NCBI GenBank assembly: GCA_036172245.1
Contig: JAYWIR010000002.1
Location: 4,278,001 to 4,342,000 of the forward strand
Length of the DNA: 64,000 bases
From: Raillietiella orientalis
Lineage: Eukaryota
Reading direction: 5' to 3'
How positions within the stretch are numbered: the stretch's first letter is position 1; each line of letters opens with the position of its first letter. This document shows positions 14,578 through 47,449 of the stretch, one piece after another. The position numbers were made by a program, and so were the translations under genes. Under the pieces are notes generated by a model, which worked only from the letters and a program-made list of their open reading frames with translations, did no database searches and was not told the origin of the DNA.

Positions 14578-16158
14578 TGCGACCTCGAGCGAGGTGACGG
14601 ACCTGAGTCGGGAGCACGCAGTCGCGCACAGCGACGACCAATGCAGAAATTCCGTTCGCGCCCAGGCTTTCTCTCCTCTGGGAAACTACCCGCTGCCTTT
14701 GGGAGCGGGGCTTCGGGTAGGGAAGGGGACCGTCCAAAGTTGAAAGCGGCGGTGAGACGACTCCACCGGCGCCAAGTACAGCCGATGAGGCTTCGAAGTA
14801 GAGCACCACTCTCTGCCATCCCTCTGATGTCGCCAACGAGCGCCGATGCGGCATTAGTGTCATCCCACTTCGAGAAGGGATGCATCAGGCCAAAAACTGT
14901 CCCTGGTCCTCTGAAGCGGGATGCGGCTGGAGACTCTGCTTGGATGTTGCGGAGGAATGAGTTTTTTTAAGAACGCCGCTATCGGACCCACGGCCTACGG
15001 ACGGGTGGCGCTAGAATTCCTGCACTACGACGCTGATTGGCGCGCAATGGAGGGTCAGAGAGCGCCAGCGGATTCCTCCTGCAGGTATGGGAGATCTCCG
15101 GCTCTCCCCTTCGGTTGCCGACCAGGGGGTTTGCTAATGTTGCCCGTCCCCGCTTGAAGGAGACAATCTACATCGGGTGCTACAGCTGAGGCCATCCATC
15201 AGCGTATGGTCTCACCCAATACAGATACATTGCGACATCGCGAGTAACCTTGGAGATTCCTGCGATCCACCCTTCCTTTCCAGAATACGTAGGTCCGCAG
15301 ACGTAGGCGACGTCCGTATTTTTGACAAAAAAACAAAAACAAAAAGGAAAATGAATGAAAAAAGAAAGACGAAAAAGTAATGCCACACTGTTAACTCTGT
15401 GGCGATTAGTGTGGCCACGTGGATCGCCTACTGCATCAGAAAGTTCGATGAATCACTACTATCTCGGTTCAGGTCTTCTCAATGAGCCACTTCTGGTCTG
15501 CGAGACCACAACCGATTCTCTCGATCAACTTTGGTGCCAATGATGGGAGAAGGAAGAGAGATAAGTAAACACAAGGAGCGAGAGATGAACATCGTTGGTC
15601 CTGACTGTCAGAGTCTGCGGATGGGGGTACGGGCGCAACAGCACGAAAAATGACGGCAGTTTGCTGTCTTCGACCCCCAACCCAATCCTCAGGAGATTCA
15701 TCACCAATGGGGAATATCGCCCAGCATAACCGGCGACAGGCGGATTGAGTTCTTCTTTGCCCCTGCTTCTGTTTTAGGCTGGGTGAACTATGCCGTCTGC
15801 CCCTTTTCCAACCTTTTTCCAACGATGCTCTCAAGGAATCATTGCATAGGGCATCTTTCACCGGGATGCAGCAACATGTTCATTCACCAGGATCCTCACT
15901 TTTTGCAATATCATACAACATGTGCTGGGATCAACCCAACTTCTGCATCAGTCATCATCCCTTTCCCCACATTGTCCGATGAATGGGATGTAGCCTTAAA
16001 CTTCCCTTCAGCCTTTTTTTTCCTTCCGCAACTGGAAATGTATTTGCAACCAAGTAGCTCCTACACATGAAGGCGGATTCCATTCCCAAATCTCTCCACT
16101 GGTTCTCAAGCCCAAACTTCCCCTTAAGCCACCAGGTGACTCCAAGAACCAGGGAGGC

Positions 16159-19100
16159 TCAGATGAAAAGATGGCTGGTTGACTTCTGTATCATGCTTGA
16201 GGATCTCCTGATATGGCTACTGTCAGGAGAACTCACACGCCCTGATCTACACACCCTGGAGAATGCCATGGAAACAGCCCTTGGGCCTACCTGTCATCAG
16301 AAGAAGGGGGGGTTTCAGAAACCACTGTTTTCTGATCATCAGGCAAGATGGTAATCAAGTCAGGACTGCAGCTGGTCGCCTACTAGCATAGCACCTTGCT
16401 TGTTGTCATTCCCCATACCTGCACACCACTGAAGAGTGTTCTTGTCTTATTCCTCATGGTAAACTGGGTGGATTCTTTCTGTTCTGCGGACAAGCAGAGA
16501 GTTTCGTCATTTTCGATGTCATCATCGTCAGATGCTTCCAGGAGCATTCTCAGGTGTTTCCGCCATTGGTCCAACGATCGCAGGGTCATTCTGTTTCTGA
16601 CAAGCTATCGGAACACAAGCTGATCTTGTGACTGGATTTCCCTTCATACCGAGCGCATGCGGCTGCTAAGGGTCAGTAGGTTACGCAGCACAGCTGCACT
16701 GCTTCCCAGGTATTGCAGCCCAGAAAGCAGCTGTAATAGTGAACGCACAAAGGGCCCTTCTGGCTGCATGCAAATCATGTCACTGAGAGAGAAAGCCAGA
16801 TCATGGTGGATAGCATTGCCTTCTTTATCAGGAGTATGTTCCTGTGTCAGGGCAATGACAAACCAGCCCACATTAGTGATACCAGACATGGAAAGGGGGG
16901 AGGTGGTTGGAGCTTCCATAATCACACGCAAGGTTGGGATCAGGGATTCACCCAACAGCTGCTGGTGGGAGTGGGCCAAGGAAGAATAAAGAGGAAAGAA
17001 CTTCCCCAAGATGTCCCGGATCTGAGGTTCTTCCTGAGTGAGAGGGTTGCACCACAAGAGGAGCAAATGTGATAGCAGCTGAATGGAGGCCACTCTGTCA
17101 TGCAAAAGTAGCTTGCAGAGCTGCTCCACAGCAGCAGCCTGCAGGTCAGCAGACTCATTGCCCAAGAAAGGAACCAAGATGTCCATTCCATCAGGCACCT
17201 CCACCTGGTTCAGCATCAGGTCACCAATAGCACGAATAGCCACAACTTGCACCTCTGCAACGTCCATATGGATAGCCTGAAAGCTCAGGGTTGAAAACAA
17301 GCTTTCTCTAAGAGAAAAAGAGGAAACCTGTTTGAACAGAGGCACATAGTGTTCTCCCAGATGAGAATTCAGCAAGCAGAAGATGCCCATAGCAGACAGT
17401 CCCCTCACACGGATGCTGAGGAATGGACTTTGAATGCATGGGAGGAGCAAGTCATCCACCAGGCTGAGCAATATGTCATCCACAGTGCTCACATCTTTGC
17501 TCTGAAGCATCTCCTGGACAATGTGGAGGCAACGAACCAGCATAGCTGGGTTCTCTGCTTCATCCACATCTTGGTGCTGGTGCTCTGCACCTTCAGGGTC
17601 AACAGATGGTGTCAGAGCCTCCTCAAGCTCTGATGACAGCAAGCGTATCTTCTCTTCTTTCTCTTGCAGCTCGTCTTTGATCCTCTGAGCCTGCACAAAG
17701 TCCTGCTCACGGATGAGCTCATCAAGATACTCACGGAGCTCATGCTTCTCAACTCTAAGTTTTGCGATCTGGAAGAAAAATCAAATACCCCCTGCAAAGC
17801 AGAAGACAACAAGAATCATTGATGCCCATTAACAGTTTGAATTGCAAGGTGGAGGAGAAGTACTTTCTGATTACCTGGAAATCAGAATGCTGGACACTGA
17901 AGAGAATAACAATTCGCTGAAGTTGAGGATGCTGGGCAGAATTACAAAATGCGGTATAGCAATGGGATCATGGGTTAAAATGTTCAAAGACTAAAGCTCA
18001 TAAGCAGTGAACTGCATCTCTGATGCAGAAGAAAAACAAGATGACACACAGACGAACCATGCTGATGAAATCGAAAGTTCATTCAAGGACTTCCAAAGAA
18101 GGGAAAGAAGGTTGCATGAAAGGACAGAAGAAATACAAAATGATCAGTAAATAAAAAACAGTGAAGTGAAATGTCAGTTACATTAACGAATGATAATGTA
18201 AACTGCATATAACCACAGCAACAGAAATAAAAACAAAAGTGAGGGAGAGAGGAATGGGCACCTCTGTCTGGCCTACCTGAAGCTTTTTCCGTCTGCATTC
18301 TTCCTTATCAAGAGTCTTTTGATTAGCAGTGGCACACAGAGGTTGTCGGAGCTCAGCAAGCAGCTCAAGGAAGTGCACAATACGTATGTGTGCATCATGC
18401 TGGATGAAGCCACTGATCTGAACCAGAGAAGGCACCAATTCATCCTCAACCTGAAGATCCAACAGCAATTGGTCAACAAGGAGAGCCAGCTTCTTCCTGA
18501 AAGGGAAGAAGTAATCACGAAAATACCAATGATAGTGGCATCTCCACCTGCCAAACTCATCTGCCAAGTCAAAGACCTCAGTGAAAAGCAACAGCTCCTG
18601 AAACAGGCGCATCTGCTCGCTGTTGGACTCCATTTCTTGCACCTTGTTAAGGTAATCACAGAACTGACTCAAAGAAGGCAGCAAGTGGTCTAAGGCAGAC
18701 TCATTCGCAGACTGAAGATGCAGACAAACCCTCCTCCAGAAAAATGCCTTTTCCAAGTTGATTTCCGTAATAGGAATTGTTCGACTTTCATCCAGCATAC
18801 TCTTCAATTGTTTTACCATCCCCTCCTCAGTATCCTGACTGGTAAGAGACATCATCATCACCAAATTAACTTTCAATCTCATAGCGCACTTGAAAAGCGC
18901 ATCCAATGCCATCTGTGGAACTTCTGCTCTGTTCTTGACATCCAAACGATGTATAAATTCTACATACTGGTAATCTACACTTTGAAACCACATAGGAAGA
19001 ACCACATCTTTGATGGTCTGCTTCACCATAGCAGCAGAATCCAAGAGTCCTTCGAAGATGAAGCGTTCTCTCTGGGCAATAGTAAAGGATTGAATGTGCA

Positions 19101-20873
19101 CCCTACGTCCCAAGTAGTTATAGGCCTCTTTCCGGACAAAGTTACGCACATCCCGAGTGCGAGCAATGATGTGAGGCAGTGTAGTTCTAAAACCTGAAAA
19201 CCCAAGAATGGTTTATTCCTAAGGAGTCATATGCTCACCTGCAATCACTTGGAGAATAGCCTTACGAACTGATGGACTAGGATCATTACTAAGATGAAAA
19301 ATGTATGCTTTGATCACAGGACACTCAGGATTCTCTGGGTCTTGAAGACGGCGAATCGCATGAACAGCCTGCACACGCACAGCTGGCATTTTGTCTTGCA
19401 TACGTTTCATCATGGAGGCAATCATTTCATCAAACAGGTTGGCATCAATCCTTGCATCATCCCCCATCTTCATCAGCAGCATGGATACTAACTGACATGC
19501 TCGAAAACGAGCTGCTCTGTTTTTGCAATGAATGATCTAATGGCATAATATTAAACAAATGAATCAATAATTCTAGAAGTTGGATGTTTCAACAGCTCAA
19601 AAGACAGCAAACTCCAACGAAAGAAAGACCAAAAACATAAAAAGGACCTTTTCTGAGAACTGCAAATTGTACCCTCATATGTTGCAATTGATCAGGAATT
19701 ATTAGAAAATTCTTTAAATGGCAAGCTTTGTACTCAATTAATAATTTTCTCATTATTTAACAAATAGTCCGTAATAAAAAACATTACATCAGTTTTCAAA
19801 AACATACATGCACTCTGATACAAAAATTTCATGGAAAAATCTTTGAAATCACCTCCATGATAAAATGGATGAATCGTAAGAGGAAAGGATCCATCTCTTC
19901 ATCAGATTCATCTTCTGACTCACTGTTGACACATTTCTTGAAAATTTGATTTTCTTGAAATGAAAGTGAAAAATTTGTGACGAAAGAAAGAATTCTATCT
20001 ATGCATGTGTGCTTTTGTGCACACACCAGAACAACTTTCAGAGCACTTTCAAATAGGATGAAGAATTTTTCTAGGCCTTCCTGAAAATCAAAACAGATTG
20101 ATAACTCATTCTTTAAAATCATATAAATGTTATAAACGTGGTTACCAACTATTTGAGACTACATATGTTTACATAGTTTTTCTTTGTAAAGTCACATATA
20201 CATCCAATATGCACAAACAAAAACATAAATCAAAAACTCGAAAAAAATAAATTAACCATCAAAGAAAATGTCCTGGACACAATAATGTTGAAAATATTGG
20301 TTGAAAACTTGAAGCATAAGGGAATCATGCAAACACTAAATCCTCAGAAAATACTTCAACTGCTTTTTTCACCAAATTCATGGACTTAAAACCATGCTTC
20401 ACAATTGAAAGTAAAATAAAAATACATTTATTCAGATGCATAGAGCTCTGTTGTATGTTTCATAAATTTCAGCTCTCTTTCACTTTTTTTGTGGAATAAA
20501 GCTATGTTTATGCGTGGAAACCTGGCTAAATTTTATTACTTCCCTCTTATCAAATAAAAATGCCCAGAGAGATCAAAAATACATTACCAATTAGAAAAAT
20601 TGCCATATTATGTATATTAAATCAATTACAGGCCTTCAAATTATAATACAAAACGGTACTAAGGAATGCATGCATGTAATTCGGCAGTTGTTTTGTAAGT
20701 TACTTAAGTTAAGTTAACGAAGAACTGAACTAAGACAAGTGCTTTCATTGAAGACTTACTGTTTCGAATATTTGCTGCAACCGTTTTACCAACTTATCAT
20801 GAGTTGCTGATGGGCGTTGGGAAGCCTCAAGTATGTTACACACTTCAAGCTGAACATCATTAGAATAACCCAT
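16159..20873 (-). CDS. NCAPG: Condensin I complex subunit G (CAP-G)
   Basis: Exons 20873-20760 (MGYSND...SQRPSATHDKLVKRL), 20080-19853, 19536-19239 (RFRACQLV...RMQDKMPAVRVQAVHAIRRLQDPENPECPVI...NDPSPSVRKAIL), 19193-18890 (TLPHIIARTRDVRNFVRK...TIAQRE), 18838-18548, 18496-18277, 17768-17328, 17276-16650 (AAVEQLCKLLL...LLLLWCNPLT), 16604-16419. These are phase-consistent and give 903 codons. The last low-complexity exons are uncertain (tentative stop 16159-16161; could extend toward ~15.4 kb). Confidence 0.92.
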
Positions 20874-20890
20874 CTTATGTCCTCTATTAT

Positions 20891-21730
20891 TTAATCAACT
20901 AACATATGCACATCACAATCGATAAGTGAATGAATGTCACAGATTGGGATTTTCCAAAACTGATATGAATTGAATAATTCTGGCACGTCAGAATCTCTTT
21001 CGTTTATTACATAATTGAAATTTGAATCTGGAATAGAAAACGCATCTCCTTGCACAAGATCATCTATGGCTTCACTTGATTCGATGTTGGGATGCAACGA
21101 CCAGTCTAAATATCCATCACTTACGGCAACCAGCCTTTGATTATTAAACTTGGGCTGCTTCAGGTTTCTTGAAACATCACATTCTATTGAAACAGATTTA
21201 CGTTTCATCCAATCAAAATAAAATTGTTTCACTACAAGGAAATGACTAATACAACCGCATGAACTTTTGGTTCAATGGCTTCAGTAAAACACAACTTTCA
21301 CATTCCAGCTTCCAGGACTCCAATTAGTTTGTCATGTGCTCAATAAAAGTTGCCTTTGTACATTCAAAGGGCTTTAGACTAAACGGGAACTCTAAAAAAC
21401 ATGAATGCTTGAGAAACAATGCCTAAAAGCTGTTGAAGTACTTTCAAAACACACAAGCCATATGATCATGCCGGGCCGAAACTTCAAACGCTCCTTTCGC
21501 GCATCCACCACCTTGTTGCCTTCGTTTCCCGCCACAGTGCGTTTGTTGCCCCTCCAAAAAAAATTCCACCTTTTAGCAAGAGGGAATTCCATCCCGTAAA
21601 TTTTGCTGCTCCTTCTGCTCGGACCACGCTCAAGAAATTTCTTAACCCCATTATGGAATTCGAAATTTCCCTCCCTGCTTGAAGTTCCAGCGTATCTATC
21701 ACCCTGCTTTCTGACGCTGACGCTTTGCAT
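20891..21730 (-). CDS. Small C9orf40/AF1q(MLLT11)-like protein with WRNPLP-type motif
   Basis: ORF 21208-20891 (105 aa, MKRK...KQPK...ELFNSYQFWKIPICDI) ends in a motif like the YNTFQYWRNPLP of C9orf40 and YSTFNFWRAPIASI of AF1q. An upstream ORF starts at ATG 21730 in good context (aaccATG) just after a GT-AG 5'UTR intron (21830-21743). It could be joined through the acceptor ttgtag at ~21232, but the donor is uncertain. Confidence 0.55.
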
Positions 21731-21999
21731 GGTTATTTTCTTCTAACAGTAAAATTTCGATTTATAGAAACTCGAATCGTTGTTGTGCTGCACCAGTCGC
21801 CTTCTTTCAAGCCTGTATTCCTCGTCTTACCCACTTTTGACATCAATCTTATTATTAGTTAGTATCTTATAATCTCTCGATCGGAAGGAAAATCAAGCGG
21901 CATCTATGGAAACAGCATTTCCATAAAGATACATTTTGTCTTGTGCGCCAGTGTAGCCAAAAGAACGAATATTTTTGAAAAAACTTCCACCGTTCTTGT

Positions 22000-22880
22000 G
22001 AGATCAGTCTAACAATAACGGTAAACGTTTAAGCATTAAACTATGCGCATGCCTTCGGACAACAGTCCCTGTTTCCCACATGTTTCCCACTAGGAGCGTG
22101 TCGGTGCGCTGGTGCCTCAGTTCCTCCAGCGCGCTCTGGAATCCTCTGTCGTTTGCAGTGTAGCTTGTCGGGCATTTCCGACATAACTTCCATATTTCTC
22201 GTTTATGCATTTTGCAGCAGGATTCCTCACTAACATTTCGAGGCTGTCTTTACGAGAGTTTTCGAGAGTTCAGCGATTCGCTTTTCTCAGGTATTCCTAC
22301 TTATCGTTATGGAGTATCTGAGGTCTTGTGTTTCGGCAGTATCTAAGCGTTTTCCAGCTGTGCTTACACTGCCTGAGATTAGCATTATGCTTGCTTTATT
22401 TCGGTTCTTGAGAAATGACTCCCAGTTCTTTTAGAACGAGGCTCTCAGTTTGCTTGAAGAACGGTTTTTTGTCTTTCCTTGTAGAAAGTTTAAGAGCCTC
22501 GTGTGACATCGTAGAATACTTTGCGTCCGGGATGTGTCCGGAAGGTCAGTTATGAGAATATCCAGTTCGACACAGCAGATGTGACGAAGCAAGGCTCTTT
22601 GTGAACTTCGCAAACCGAGAACCAGGTACAATCAAGCGGCAATTTCTCCCCTTTGCGGACGTGGAATGATGTCTCCGTGACCAGTGCCTTGGCCAGTGAT
22701 CGGGCAGGGAGTCGACTTATGCGTGAAATGTACAGTAGGCACAAATTCACTGTCATTCCCATCAATGCATGTAGCTAAGCAAGAATGCCAGAGGACACCA
22801 ACAGAACATATCCTGCTTTCCCACAAACTACAATACCTGGCAGCAGGAGACTGCAGGCACCTGGATCCGCATGACCTCTC
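22000..22880 (-). mobile_element. Degenerate LINE AP-endonuclease C-terminus and linker
   Basis: TETSFHVRKGEKLPLDCTWFS (cf. TF...SRLDYxWxS), followed by LEELRHQRTDTLLV..WETG (EN-RT linker). Interrupted by stops. Confidence 0.5.
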
Positions 22881-34711: not shown

Positions 34712-37700
34712 ATGGAAGAAGCGGAATTCCGGAGAGCGGCATATCAGCTGATTGAGTACATTATCGACTACTTTGAAACCCTGAGGTCCAGGAGAGTGTT
34801 ACCGGAAGTGAAACCGGGATTCCTGGAAGCGAGGATCCCGGCAGATGCCCCTGAGGATGGAGAAGAATGGAAAAACATCTTTCCGGACGTGGAGAACGTC
34901 ATCATGCCAGGGGTAAGTGCGTTTCCCAGCCTGTACAAAAAACAGATGCCGAGGTGCATCTCCGGCGGGCTTGTCGTTTGGCGCTCGTCGGTGCAGAAGC
35001 GGGCATTTCCGGTTCCTGCTGGTCCAACTGAATCGCAACAGATCTTTTTTCCTTCTTTCCCCAAGAAAATGGGAGGAAAAAAAAAAACGGTCGCAAGAGG
35101 AACAGAGCATCAGATGCTGGCTGCGAAATTAGAAAAGGGAAGGGAAGAGGTAGAGAGAAAATGCATTCGATCCGTGACCTCCAGCAACCTCCGGTCGAGT
35201 GCCGTTTGCTCCTACGCTCGCGCACCTCGGTCTCGAATTCTGCTCACGCGCCCCAGTGTTGCCATCCGTTCCGCGTGTACGACACGCCGTCTGGTTTCAT
35301 CCCTATCCATGGAGCGGGAAGCAGACCCACTCTCCCCCGCATGAGAGGTCCAGCTCCCGCGTGCTCCTCATCTCTTTTTTTTTTTTTGTTTTTTTAGGTC
35401 ACGCACTGGAATTCGCCATATTTCTTCGCGTATTTTCCATCGGGTTCCTCGTATCCCGCGATCTTAGGAGAGCTCCTGTCTGCGGCGATTGGCTGTATCG
35501 GATTCTCGTGGGTAAACAGCCGCAGGCGGCTTGACCTCCAGTTTTTGACTGCTTTCCAAGATCGCGAGCCCTGCGTGCACCGAGCTCGAAATGAAGATGA
35601 TGGATTGGCTGGGGAGAGCCCTTGGACTGCCCTCCGAATTTCTTTTCGGAACCAATGGGAAGGGAGGAGGAATGATACAGGTGGGGCTGTCTCAGGTCGG
35701 CGAAGTCGCGAGATCACTCCAACCTATCTTCAAGGGCACCGCGAGCGAAGCCACGCTCGTCTCCTTGCTGGCTGCCAAGGCACGCAGCAGGCGCGCCGTC
35801 CAGAGCACGGACTCCAACCGAACCGCGGCCAGTGGACCACGAACGCTGTGCGCCTACACATCCAGTTGAGTGCGCCACATTTTCAGATGGAGCGCACTGC
35901 GCGCGTCCGCTAGCAACGGACCCAAGAACCTCCCTGCCGTCCGTTCTGCCGTCAGCGAATAACGAGAGTTGGGTCTTCTAGATCAGGCGCACTCGTCTGT
36001 GGAGAAGGCAGCCATGATCGGCGACGTGAAGATGAGAGCGCTGGAACCGGACGACAAGCTCTCTCTGAGAGGCGACACACTGGAGCAGGCCATAAAGAAC
36101 GACCTCCTTGAGGGGAACACCCCGTTTTACGTATGCGGCAGATATCATTGAAACAGAGCCACCCCCTGTCGTGCAGGTAGTGGCCACCCTTGGCACGACG
36201 AACACGTGTGCCTTCGATAATCTCTGGGAAATCGGGAACGTGTGTCGGAAATACGAGATCTGGCTGCACGTGGACGCGGCGTATGCCGGTAGGTAACGAC
36301 GGAGGAGAGAGAGGCACGCACGCGCGACGGTTTTCAAGGCACGGCATTCTTCTGCGAGGAGTACCGTCACTTGGCACGCGGGATCGATCTCGCAGATTCC
36401 TTCAACTTCAATCCTCACAAGCTGATGCCGGTGAACTTCGATTGCTCCGCCCTCTGGTAACCGCCCACACAGGGTGCGACTCACTGCCCAGTTTTCATAA
36501 CAGGTTCAAAGATTCCAGCTACATCGCCTCGGCCTTTTACGTCGATCCCGAGTACTTGAAACACAGGGAGCAAGGGAGAGCGCTGGACTACAGGGTAGGT
36601 GGATAACCTCCGTCTGGATCGACACGACCTCTCACTCTCCCTCCGTCTCGCCTGCAGCACTGGCAGATACCTCTGGGAAGCCGGTTCCGGGCGCTGAAGC
36701 TGTGGTTTGTCCTGAGGTCTTACGGGAAGAGGGGCATCCGTGAACACGTCCGCAAGCACGCGACTCTGGCCAAAAGGTTCGAGGACCTGGTGCGGGAGGA
36801 CTTCCGCTTCGAAGTCTCGTTCCCTGTGAATTTGGGACTGGTGTGCTTCAGACTCAAGGTTAGAAAAGGCGCAGCATCCGAAACCTGTTCCTCGACCGCA
36901 AGAGCTTCCGGGCCTGAAACGAACTTCGAAAGGACTCCCTCAGGATAGATGCGGGTCCGGGGAACCGAGACCTTCGTGGACTCTCGTTCCCGTCTCTCTG
37001 GCAACGCTAGTGCTCCTAGGAGTCCTGCGTGCTCGCCGCCGAGGGGCGATTCGAGTTCCGAGCGGCGCGGGATCGTCGGAGAGGAACTTTTGGGAAATCG
37101 CTTGGGAGGTTCAGGAGACGCGGGACAAAACTGGCGACTATCCCTCTATGCTGGCAGCCGCTCAGGTGACGTGGCCGGCGTCCCCCAGCAAGCGATACGG
37201 CTCTCGACGCGGTGGGCTGCTCGCCTCCGGAATAGCTGAATTCCGGCTTGGATACCTCAAAAATTCTTTGCCAAGCACCCTCGAGTCAGGTGTCAAAAGT
37301 GCGGCTCCGTGAATCCTTCCACCCACAGCCCCTCGTGACCTCCTCTCTTGCGTTTAGGTGAATTGCAATCTCTTGGCAGCGGCGGCACGGTTTTAGGACG
37401 CCACGCAGCCCTCACCTCTTTCCCACCTCCCTGCAGGCGTCTTTTGGGATGTTGGCGCCAAGTGCCTCCATTCTCGACATCAGCGGCTCCCTCAGCTCGT
37501 TTGACCCGCAGAAAGAATTCATTCTTCGCACCGAATATGCCTGTTCCAATCATACGAATAACAACCCTCACCTACGAATAACAACATCTAAGACACCTTC
37601 ATTCCTCCCGTTGTTCACTCTGACCATCGAACCTCTTCCAAAACTGTCTCACCCTTTTTTCCCCTACAAGGAGGGGAACGCAGTCAACGAGAAGCTGCTC

Positions 37701-37886
37701 CATGAAATCCAAGCCAGCGGGAAGATCTACCTGGTGCCTTCTCAAGTGAGAGACAGATATTTCCTGCGATTCTCCGTGTGCTCCCGTTACTGCACCGAGG
37801 CGGACATTGAATTCGCCTGGAAGGAGATCAGCAGTCAGGCAGACAAACTAAAGATCGCCGTCCGAGAACGCCTTACAGTAGAATGA
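34712..37886 (+). CDS. Ddc: Aromatic L-amino acid (DOPA) decarboxylase-like, PLP-dependent group II decarboxylase, 483 aa
   Basis: Ten exons: 34712-34912, 35398-35511, 35561-35680, 35735-35864, 35982-36130, 36177-36288, 36339-36456, 36504-36594, 36658-36858, 37671-37886, all GT-AG. Motifs: [52 protein letters not shown] (PLP lysine), DPEYLKH, DYRHWQIPLG. NPHK and PLG favour DDC over HDC/TDC, but paralog assignment needs a tree. Confidence 0.93.
36950..37500 (+). mobile_element. LINE endonuclease remnant in the last DDC intron
   Basis: SERNFWEI...TGDYPS (cf. ERxxFW...GDFN) and GCWRQ (cf. GxWRxN) traces in order. Confidence 0.4.
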
Positions 37887-37891
37887 ATAAA
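37886..37891 (+). terminator. Candidate polyadenylation signal of the DDC-like gene
   Basis: AATAAA overlaps the last base of the TGA stop (gaaTGAATAAAat). Confidence 0.5.
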
Positions 37892-37999
37892 ATACCATGT
37901 GGTTGCTAACTCATGTTGGCCAGCATCCGGGAGCGAGCTGCTTGCGGATGGAAGAACCTGAGACAATTCTGTAGGATGCGCGACGGTGGATTCGATATC

Positions 38000-45122: not shown

Positions 45123-45824
45123 TCATGAAGTTTTGATGAATCTTATGTCACTTAAAGTTTTGAATACTGTATTAATAAGTCCTTGATTGTTTGCACCAGC
45201 ATTTTCCAATTTTAACTGATCACCATTCACTTGTGGTTTGCTTTCTGATAAAGGAAGCTGATTGTGTTTAACAGAAGAATGGGACAACTTTCGATAAAGT
45301 TCCTTAATACGAGCTGAATTTTCTTCACACTGGAACTGTAAATCTGCAAGACTACTTTTCAAATCACTAATTAGTTCTTCTCTAACTCTTTCCTTTTCTT
45401 TTTCTTTATGTGAACTCCTAAAATATTCAGCTGTAATAAGTGAAGCAGCACTTATAAAAATAAATCCCTCTCCAAGCATGTTTGCTCCTAACTCAATAGC
45501 CATGCTTTCATTCAATTTGGAAACCGTGGCAGTTTTTCCCATACCCAGAATCCACATTTTCACATTCACTTCACACCAATGATAAACTAAAAAAACAAAA
45601 AAGTGACATAAGACTCTGAATTTTTCAAACGCTTCAATATATCACATATGAATATTGGATGATTTTAATACACATGGATTACATTGTGCTGGAGGCATGC
45701 ATACATATGTCCTGAAAAAGTAACTGCTCTTTGCTCTTGTTTTGATTCTTTCTGCAATTGGCTTGCTGATTTGTCTCAACAACAAGAAGGCCAACTTTAC
45801 AACTGGAAAGGCAGCTACAACCAT
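45123..45824 (-). CDS. OPA3: Optic atrophy 3 protein homolog, 201 aa
   Basis: Exon 1 45824-45683 ([24 protein letters not shown]...[17 protein letters not shown]), GT-AG intron, exon 2 45586-45123 ([11 protein letters not shown]...[20 protein letters not shown]...EYFRS plus coiled coil). Minus-strand AATAAA at 44936-44931. Confidence 0.95.
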
Positions 45825-47449
45825 TTTTCATCTTTATACAATCATATTCAACTCTAAAAGTAGTACACTTTATTTTTTCCTGTCATCTTGAACCAACTGA
45901 TGAATTAATATTTTACAAGTGCTTCATGCCCACAACTAAACTTTCTTATGTTTTCAAGATATGCTATTTTTTTTTAATTTGAAATTTTCCCTCATGTTCA
46001 TATTAATCGGATATACGGCAGCAAGACATTGGATCTGCTTATGCTGCTTAATTAGCTTCATATAAACTGTTAAAAAGCGTGTACAAGCTATAAAAAACAA
46101 TTTGAATTTTTTTGCCATCCCCCAAACGCCCAAACGCAGTTAAAACATCCAAATGAACTGAAAACACTGCAAAATATTTCAAATACTGCAGTGAACGTCG
46201 AATGCAACTACTTTCTTAGCAACTGGGATGTAGATGACTACATCCCAACCTGACCGCACGTGATAAACATTTTAATACATAACCCAATCATTTTAAAGCA
46301 GTACGTAACTTACTACATTCGAATAGTAATTTCAAAAAATCTTTTATCCTATTGTTCTTAAATGAATGAATTTCCTTCAAAGCAATAAGCGCATATTAAT
46401 GTCCTATCCAAGCGCTAGCAAACTCCTTACGGTTTACATGCATACCAATCCCGCAAACTCCAAATGTTGCCTGACATGCACTTGTTTGCCAGAACCATTT
46501 TCCATTGTCTTGAGCGATACATATATATAAAAAAAAATCCTTCATCTTTGGACTATCGGACACACAAACTGAAATACATATTTCATTATTAATAGTTATT
46601 CGATCAAATACTGTGTGGCTAATTTTTAAATGGCAATTGGCAAACGAATAGAACAATAAAATATCTAACAGAATCTGGCGGGAAAGAAAAAAAAAAAAAC
46701 AAAAACAGAAATCTTTCTAAAATTCACTTTATTCCTAAAATTCTTTATTCCAATTTTTCTACAACAACCAAACTTTCTCCAAGAAATCGGAGTTGCAGTT
46801 AACTGGTGATTGCATGACTAGTATATCTGTGGTATCCAACAATCTACGAAACAAATCCCGCTTTTACTTTTCTTTCTTTTTGATCTTAAAAAGCTAGCAA
46901 AGTCTGCGGTTATAGCAAAAGAAAATAGAGTTGGTTTGAGAGTTGGCATTTGATTGCTCATTTGTTATTTTCGCTATATCTGTTAGCTCTGACATTTGTT
47001 CTAATACAAAATTACAACGCTTTTAGTTAAAGCCAGAAACATATTTTGAAATAGACACATGAGGTAACTAATCTCGCTTACTGTCGCATAGTTGATACGT
47101 CCCATCCACAGCCCGGGACCAGTCTCCCTAAAGAAACTGGAAAGGAACCGGAAGAAGTGGGCTCGAGTTACTGCTGCCCTCCTAGACGCAGCACTGCCCG
47201 TCCTACGGAAGAGAACTTATACTCTTGGCACCTCTGATCTTGTCCTTTCCTACAGCAGCACTGTACACTTCTTTACACGTAAAAGACTCCTCTATAAGGC
47301 TAGCATAAGGCGATTACTTGGTTAGTTTCGGACTAATTCCACACATAATTAATACATAACGCTTCTGTATCACTATTTCATTTGGTTGTGCATAGAGGTA
47401 TCACAACTAGAAACCAAACTTCTGAAAGGAATACCAGATAGTTCCAACG

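Follow-up and report, generated by a model that had tools for sequence, protein, structure and literature searches.

Do a condensin subunit gene and a small gene that ends directly before it share one promoter and one primary transcript? The question is raised by a stretch of DNA from Raillietiella orientalis (contig JAYWIR010000002.1, positions 4,278,001 to 4,342,000; the whole stretch of 64,000 nucleotides is termed the window here, and coordinates count from its first letter), on whose minus strand an open reading frame (ORF) of 105 codons, the small ORF, stops just short of the start codon of NCAPG, the gene for condensin subunit 3. A sequence-only reading of the region had taken the small ORF for a member of the C9orf40/AF1q family (Pfam PF15017), had seen a promoter-like region solely upstream of it, and had proposed that a single transcription unit yields both proteins. 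Having followed up these claims by computation, we lean, with somewhat less than even confidence, towards a reading in which the small ORF would be a real gene, possibly a divergent relative of C9orf40/AF1q, that shares its promoter and its primary transcript with NCAPG.

A small ORF abuts the NCAPG gene

The downstream gene on the minus strand is clearly, by similarity, that of condensin subunit 3 (NCAPG/Cnd3/Ycg1), as had been proposed: Pfam places Cnd3 (PF12719) on ORF 16647-17780 (E = 6.6e-48; 163.8 bits, cut-off 25.8) and HEAT on ORF 19222-19536 (E = 4.9e-08), and tblastn with the condensin subunit 3 of a mealybug (P0001) agrees, with alignments at 19509-18253 (E = 1.4e-48) and 17774-16656 (E = 5e-26). 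The mealybug protein was the sole database relative found for NCAPG exon 4 by word search, at 27% identity (27-29%). Neither exon 1 nor exon 2 matched it significantly in BLASTP or tblastn (exon 1, BLASTP E = 9), in phmmer against PDB they had unrelated weak matches only, and a word search with its N-terminus retrieved the mealybug protein itself only, leaving no N-terminal profile possible. Because these two exons were not recovered by similarity, the placing of the start at ATG 20873 rests on splice logic, an in-frame stop and a strong context: exon 1 joins exon 2 in frame, phase 0 to phase 0; the NCAPG frame holds a stop 7 codons upstream of this ATG, so that the protein should start no further upstream in exon 1; and the surroundings of the ATG are strong (CATAAGATGG), whereas those of the small-ORF ATG are weak (GATTGGATGA). 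Exon 1 presumably also resembles other NCAPG N-termini.

The geometry described by the sequence-only reading was right in every coordinate (Table 1): the stop of the small ORF and the ATG of NCAPG are 17 nt apart on the same strand, and an AG directly precedes the ATG, at 20875-20874. The region of the small ORF and the NCAPG start is unique within the window, as judged by self-comparison. From stop to stop the frame of the small ORF runs for 126 codons (21271-20894); given that stops make up 0.0605 of the local triplets, an open frame of this length has P = 3.8e-4 per frame. From the number of unexplained ORFs of at least 100 codons with GC below 0.45 in the window, we ourselves estimate at ~0.3-0.5% the probability that one of them would by chance end on the strand of one of the two mapped start codons and no more than 20 nt before it. 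Codon-usage log-odds single out the frame of the small ORF: it stands at +0.087 bits per codon, and the other five frames range from -0.22 to -0.76. This score lies 3.7 standard deviations (SD) above that of open frames drawn by triplet sampling from local non-coding sequence (mean -0.26, SD 0.094), none of 20,000 of which reach it. GC content by codon position, at 0.47/0.30/0.31, resembles that of AT-rich known exons. We consider it likely, if well short of certain, that the small ORF is a real coding gene, and its product is probably a disordered protein.

A candidate cell-cycle promoter module upstream of both frames

Ahead of both frames, 275-324 nt before the small-ORF ATG and 610-659 nt before that of NCAPG, stand two E2F consensus sites and a canonical CHR (cell-cycle genes homology region) hexamer, TTTGAA (Table 1). 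This E2F-E2F-CHR module, newly noted in this analysis, is a candidate promoter. The E2F consensus TTTSSCGC is present in 10 copies over the whole window, where 11.1 would be expected; in 20874-22400 the two sites of the module are the only ones, with no further copy from there to the NCAPG ATG. Of 2000 sequences obtained by dinucleotide shuffling of 20874-22400, 2% had at least two E2F sites, 0.2% had two of them no more than 40 nt apart, and 1.3% had an E2F site within 20 nt of a CHR, the E2F/CHR shuffle test having been chosen after the sites had been seen; in block shuffles of the whole window an E2F pair turned up anywhere in ~10%.

Human NCAPG is a CHR gene bound by DREAM, with an expression peak in G2/M, and DREAM binds E2F or CHR sites in flies and worms too (PMC4176359, in excerpt). 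The likeness of the present locus to such promoters, as that excerpt describes them, lies in the E2F sites beside a canonical TTTGAA upstream of NCAPG; it differs from them in the distance of the putative module ahead of the NCAPG ATG, 610-660 nt, and in the further open frame that intervenes. The arrangement favours a single, putative cell-cycle promoter upstream of both frames. To this extent the promoter-like region claimed solely upstream of the small ORF holds good, the only E2F/CHR module within 1.5 kb being located there; the CpG retention on which the claim had also leaned is unspecific, as set out below.

Two other features were seen nearby. The only gene-strand TATAAA within 20.8-22.3 kb is at 21766-21761, ~230 nt upstream of the E2F pair. 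A second minus-strand frame, of 112 codons (21730-21394), directly precedes the small ORF and overlaps the module; its ATG at 21730 has an A at -3, Pfam finds nothing in it, and it is probably non-coding.

From a possible shared transcription unit to two proteins

If one promoter serves both frames, transcription would start at ~21.5 kb, near the E2F-E2F-CHR module, or a little to either side of it, and continue through the small ORF into NCAPG. The small protein would be made by translation from the 5' end, and NCAPG most likely from molecules of the same unit that are alternatively processed or started and lack most of the small ORF. There are 22 sense ATGs in 21900-20873, of which the small ORF's own and 8 more lie within 21208-20873; on an RNA that carried the whole small ORF, scanning ribosomes could thus not reach the NCAPG ATG, and leaky scanning, with nine ATGs to bypass before ATG 20873, was rejected as the main route to NCAPG. 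Efficient reinitiation at NCAPG after 105 codons is unlikely.

Genes with two cistrons on one mRNA are known in animals, among them SNURF-SNRPN, MIEF1, ASNSD1 (ASDURF), SLC35A4 and the dicistronic genes of Drosophila. The present locus resembles them in having an upstream frame in their range of ~70-105 codons, on the same strand as a conserved coding sequence, close to it and plausibly under one promoter. It differs from them in that the gap is only 17 nt after 105 codons and that 8 further ATGs lie inside. The 17-nt spacing and the 8 internal ATGs disfavour leaky scanning and reinitiation alike, so that alternative processing would be needed.

Candidate splice signals are present. An AG 23 nt upstream of the small-ORF ATG is a possible 3' splice site; joined to it, the donor at 21830 of a speculative upstream mini-exon could let ATG 21843 read in frame into the small ORF, adding 12 codons without a stop. 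The small ORF itself holds another donor, GCC/GTAAGT at 21124 on the minus strand, which follows codon 28 in phase 0; joined in frame to NCAPG exon 2, it could give NCAPG an alternative N-terminus. Each of these in-frame splice coincidences has a prior of ~1/3.

The sequence-only reading had argued that the spacer leaves no room for a poly(A) site, which goes too far: a signal variant, ATTAAA, overlaps the stop codon of the small ORF, whose sequence also contains an AATAAA at 21008-21003. The AATAAA hexamers that had been noted inside NCAPG intron 1 are indeed there, at 20537-20532 and 20432-20427. Four such hexamers on the gene strand in 20000-21300 are unremarkable in DNA of 35% GC.

Family and coding status of the small ORF

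The kinship of the small ORF with C9orf40 and AF1q, the latter (AF1q/MLLT11) being a protein that we take to be a member of PF15017, is suggested by the ESM Atlas. With the whole small ORF as query, the three nearest clusters all belong to PF15017 (wu:fa19b12, C9orf40 homolog and C9orf40, at 0.88, 0.87 and 0.86); with residues 1-75, from which the C-terminal motif is absent, the same three clusters again come first (0.85, 0.85 and 0.84). Like the proteins of this family, the predicted product is short, acidic and without a recognisable domain, and it contains motifs of the aromatic-Trp-basic-x-Pro-Ile type, the candidates being DWSLHPNIE (residues 35-43) and FWKIPICDIHS (residues 84-94). The C-terminal one is presumably nearer to the C-terminal tail of AF1q/MLLT11 than to the motif that names the family.

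Most other results of this kind weigh against the reading that we prefer, and so do the further points gathered in this section. The Pfam WRNPLPNID hidden Markov model (HMM) does not recognise the small ORF: hmmscan at E <= 10 gave no PF15017 match for the 105-residue product, the 126-codon frame or three sub-stretches, with the limit that HMMER filters drop most matches above ~0.1, so that a very weak one could slip by. No protein among 1,835,955,588 representatives matched in phmmer at E <= 0.001, the word-index search returned none, and PDB gave only noise (E = 0.73-1). A metagenome scan with the small ORF yielded 72 pattern matches, none of them confirmed by tblastn. The Atlas results themselves fall short by the Atlas's own calibration: scores below 0.9 are 'a lead only'; shared features number 162 or fewer, against 170 typical of family members; recognition is 2196, against the 2300 reached by 91% of proteins of known families; and with four of the ten best matches sharing a family, its rule calls the assignment 'probably wrong'. 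The WRNPLP motif attributed to the small ORF is not literally there. Its best 9-mer against WRNPLPNID is WKIPICDIH, with an ungapped BLOSUM62 score of 20 (DWSLHPNIE scores 7), and scores of at least 20 are attained by 23 of the 97,015 9-mers in the six frames of the window, so that the match is no better than chance.

The small ORF thus differs from PF15017 in having neither an HMM match nor a pairwise homologue and only part of the name motif; moreover, the family is recorded mainly in chordates, whereas this genome has a mosaic CpG depletion of invertebrate type. What is left of the C9orf40/AF1q-like assignment is the first place of PF15017 clusters in two Atlas queries, set against nothing from Pfam, phmmer, word search and PDB. 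A kinship, which would have to be very divergent, appears to us not far short of an even chance.

The coding statistics have another side too. The codon score of the small ORF lies as far below that of frames sampled from coding sequence (0.45 +/- 0.10; 3.7 SD) as it lies above the non-coding ones, and unannotated ORFs elsewhere reach 0.165, which makes the codon-usage test non-discriminating. The window holds 16 stop-to-stop ORFs of at least 100 codons with GC below 0.45, 11 of which are unexplained.

CpG frequencies do not help to locate a promoter. The ratio of observed to expected CpG (o/e) is 0.75-1.1 across nearly the whole window, the only depleted regions being the body of NCAPG (~15.75-20.55 kb, o/e 0.1-0.6) and an exon of OPA3 (45-46 kb, 0.23); CpG retention is therefore the default of the window and no mark of a promoter. 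From 20.55 to 22.6 kb, the small ORF included, the ratio is 0.64-1.4, with a single 300-nt window at 0.32. Since this retained zone, from 22.6 down to ~20.55 kb, takes in the small ORF and the beginning of NCAPG (exon 1 and the first part of intron 1), CpG cannot place the start site, and the profile has too few CpGs per 300 nt to do so. Were transcription to start at the E2F module, seven ATGs of short upstream ORFs (21469-21260) would precede that of the small ORF, so either the true start would be further downstream than the module or an intron would remove these upstream ORFs. Finally, the AG before ATG 20873 is preceded by few pyrimidines (a fraction of 0.29 at -20 to -4, compared with 0.65 at the NCAPG intron-1 acceptor), which makes it poor for cis- or trans-splicing.

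Alternative readings

Several of these points converge on the alternative that survives best, although we hold it to be unlikely: that the small ORF is a chance or non-functional frame in the promoter or 5' leader of NCAPG, at most a long inhibitory upstream ORF. The lack of a homologue in Pfam, phmmer, word search and PDB would then need no explaining, nor would a family call rated probably wrong, with recognition below threshold, and a motif match that is not significant; the ATG context is weak, and unexplained ORFs of at least 100 codons are found 11 times in the window, with the 112-codon frame 21730-21394 right upstream. Such a frame would, however, end 17 nt before a start on the same strand only improbably (below 1% by our own estimate), and the codon score and the pattern of GC content by codon position (first > second ~ third) are specific to the frame of the small ORF. 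The same rare family (PF15017), moreover, comes first in two Atlas queries. A housekeeping mRNA with at least nine upstream ATGs would also be poorly translated, so that a plain 5' untranslated region (UTR) is unlikely.

Rather improbable, in our judgement, is a pair of overlapping units, in which the small gene would have an mRNA of its own, polyadenylated after the ATTAAA or an intronic AATAAA, and NCAPG would be transcribed, with a very short 5'UTR, from a promoter inside the 3' coding part of the small gene. Poly(A) cleavage takes place ~10-30 nt downstream of the hexamer, and past the ATTAAA at 20895-20890 it would fall on the NCAPG ATG. With a start shortly before 20873, no upstream ATG would be left in the mRNA; a gene-strand CCAAT is found at 20947-20943, ~70 nt before the NCAPG ATG, and the CpG o/e of 0.64-0.80 over 20.55-21.3 kb is compatible with an unmethylated start site. 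But at 35% GC, chance alone should produce CCAAT and A-rich hexamers, and nothing marks a start site. Between 21363 and 20873 there is no E2F consensus and no sense TTTGAA, the sole CHR-like hexamer being on the plus strand at 21021-21026; human NCAPG is a DREAM/CHR gene, yet no such sites are near the proposed internal start.

The third alternative, which we rate as quite improbable, is the one whose published architecture comes closest to the present locus: a spliced-leader operon of the type of tunicates (Ciona) or of C. elegans SL1, whose pre-mRNA would be cut at the AG before ATG 20873, with the upstream poly(A) site there too and NCAPG receiving the leader. Ciona operons have no intercistronic DNA, the upstream poly(A) site coinciding with the G of the acceptor AG used in trans-splicing, and for 16 of the 18 upstream cistrons shown no AATAAA is found 40 nt or less from the poly(A) site; intercistronic distances are 23-30 nt in Oikopleura and ~100 nt in C. 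elegans, whose minor SL1-type operons are cited as a similar case (PMC1488885, in excerpt). The likeness consists in abutting genes on one strand, an AG before the downstream cistron, little room for an upstream poly(A) site, and products that are functionally unrelated or loosely related. The absence of intercistronic DNA in Ciona, however, refers to poly(A) site and acceptor, whereas here the stop and start codons themselves are 17 nt apart; the AG here is without a pyrimidine tract, and the small ORF has an ATTAAA variant overlapping its stop codon.

Same-strand genes 17 nt apart, with an AG abutting the NCAPG ATG, are what such an operon would show. CpG depletion in gene bodies, introns of 45-57 nt and a divergent NCAPG are typical of ascidians too, and the Atlas neighbours of the small ORF are chordate families. 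Against an operon, neither a spliced-leader RNA nor any other Rfam family was found in the window, and the AG has 29% pyrimidines at -20 to -4, against fractions of 0.65-0.71 for the likely cis acceptors. The genes are otherwise widely spaced, with ~13 kb to the decarboxylase gene (DDC), and the intergenic GC content, at 55-65%, is unlike that of tunicate genomes. A fusion of the two frames by frameshift or read-through, the last alternative, was rejected on the grounds that the frames differ and that the stop in the NCAPG frame lies 7 codons before its ATG.

The NCAPG gene model and the rest of the window

The coordinates of the features are collected in Table 1. Within 16647-19212 the ORFs of NCAPG contain stop-free, in-frame stretches of ~51-57 nt that appear as insertions relative to the mealybug protein in tblastn and look like introns; naive translations of these ORFs would thus carry extra residues. 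NCAPG intron 3 has 45 nt. In the window as a whole, tiny introns of 45, 47 and 53 nt were read directly, and gaps in the tblastn alignments suggest two more, of ~51-57 nt. Three metagenome loci (L001-L003) were considered as NCAPG on 35% identity over 49 residues (the HEAT stretch of exon 3) and an exon-2 match at E = 0.67, and were dropped, there being no match to the mealybug protein, to other NCAPG exons or to the small ORF.

Table 1. Features mapped in the window, with the strand on which they are read; a slash marks an exon boundary.
Feature	Position	Strand	Remarks
Candidate cell-cycle promoter module	21483-21532	-	two E2F consensus sites and canonical CHR
E2F sites	21525-21532 (TTTCCCGC) and 21495-21502 (TTTCGCGC)	written on +	30 nt apart
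CHR, TTTGAA	21488-21483	gene strand (-)	6 nt past the proximal E2F site
Speculative upstream mini-exon	21843-21831	-	ATG 21843 plus 10 nt; donor TGG/GTAAGA (GT at 21830-21829)
Candidate 3' splice site AG	21233-21232	-	...CATTTCCTTGTAG/T; 23 nt upstream of small-ORF ATG; pyrimidine fraction 0.71 at -20 to -4
Small ORF	21208-20891	-	ATG 21208, TAA 20893-20891; 105 codons; acidic product rich in Ser, Asp and Asn
ATTAAA, poly(A)-signal variant	20895-20890	-	overlaps small-ORF stop codon
Spacer, small-ORF TAA to NCAPG ATG	20890-20874	-	17 nt, ATAATAGAGGACATAAG, ends in AG (20875-20874)
NCAPG exon 1	20873-20760	-	38 codons; ATG context CATAAGATGG (A at -3, G at +4); donor ACA/GTAAGT
NCAPG intron 1	20759-20081	-	679 nt; T-rich tract, then CAG (...TTTTCAG); AATAAA at 20537-20532 and 20432-20427
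NCAPG exon 2	20080-19853	-	76 codons, phase 0 at both ends
NCAPG exon 3 (HEAT repeats)	19536-19239	-	Pfam HEAT, tblastn
Remaining mapped NCAPG coding sequence	19193-16647	-	includes Cnd3 domain; at least 1 intron between 17780 and 18181
Aromatic-L-amino-acid decarboxylase-type gene	34713-37900	+	Pfam Pyridoxal_deC on three exon ORFs
OPA3 second exon	45126-45641	-	Pfam OPA3, E = 8.3e-24; within a CpG-depleted, AT-rich island

Three genes are recognisable by Pfam in the 64 kb: NCAPG, the aromatic-amino-acid decarboxylase and OPA3. Of 209 ORFs of at least 105 codons, 81 were scanned against Pfam, and 75 of these had no match. The first intron of the decarboxylase gene is 486 nt long and the next two ~47 and 53 nt; their positions are presumably those of vertebrate DDC. 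One further copy of TTTCCCGC is present at 46678-46685, upstream of the OPA3 exon and on the same strand.

The long intergenic stretches reach a GC content of 55-66%; in NCAPG and OPA3 it is 29-50%. The composition of the window is strongly bimodal, and its GC-rich intergenic DNA (CpG o/e ~0.9) is full of spurious long ORFs on both strands. We read the depleted region 15750-20550 as a gene body methylated in the germline, of the mosaic kind seen in invertebrates, an interpretation of our own; the decarboxylase gene, with a CpG o/e of ~1.0, is not depleted, and the pattern looks like mosaic gene-body methylation confined to housekeeping genes. Rfam and tRNA scans of the window gave no match, spliced-leader RNA included. 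A scan for bacterial-type promoters and terminators, irrelevant to a eukaryote, counted 7, against 4.8 +/- 1.7 in shuffles.

Discussion

Dicistronic and overlapping gene pairs, like spliced-leader operons, are known kinds of arrangement; what gives this locus special interest is that a condensin subunit would here be paired with a family whose function is unknown. How much follows depends on the reading. Should the small ORF be open by chance, what remains is a promoter of NCAPG in which an E2F-E2F-CHR module is neatly arranged, and if the species trans-splices, the locus would be one more ordinary operon. A shared transcript would add one more to the few animal genes whose transcript carries a conserved main frame and, ahead of it, a long second one.

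In humans, C9orf40 shows co-expression with cell-cycle genes (PMC5217208, in excerpt), and its knock-down leads to senescence markers (PMC7333371, in excerpt), a tie to proliferation that would fit the partner of a condensin gene. The literature searched yielded no link of C9orf40 or AF1q to condensin beyond co-listing, and 'WRNPLPNID' was found in no paper. It is a long shot, to our mind, that the small protein represents the C9orf40/AF1q family in divergent, invertebrate form and is made together with NCAPG from an E2F/DREAM-controlled unit because it acts with condensin I; as one possibility, it might be a disordered, motif-bearing regulator that docks on the HEAT surface of CAP-G.

If the two frames do form one cell-cycle unit, the locus would provide a natural co-expression link between a core subunit of chromosome condensation and a protein family without known function, and this link would be testable in model systems. 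Should the small protein act with condensin I, this would be the first functional assignment for the C9orf40/AF1q family and would add a new regulator of condensin.

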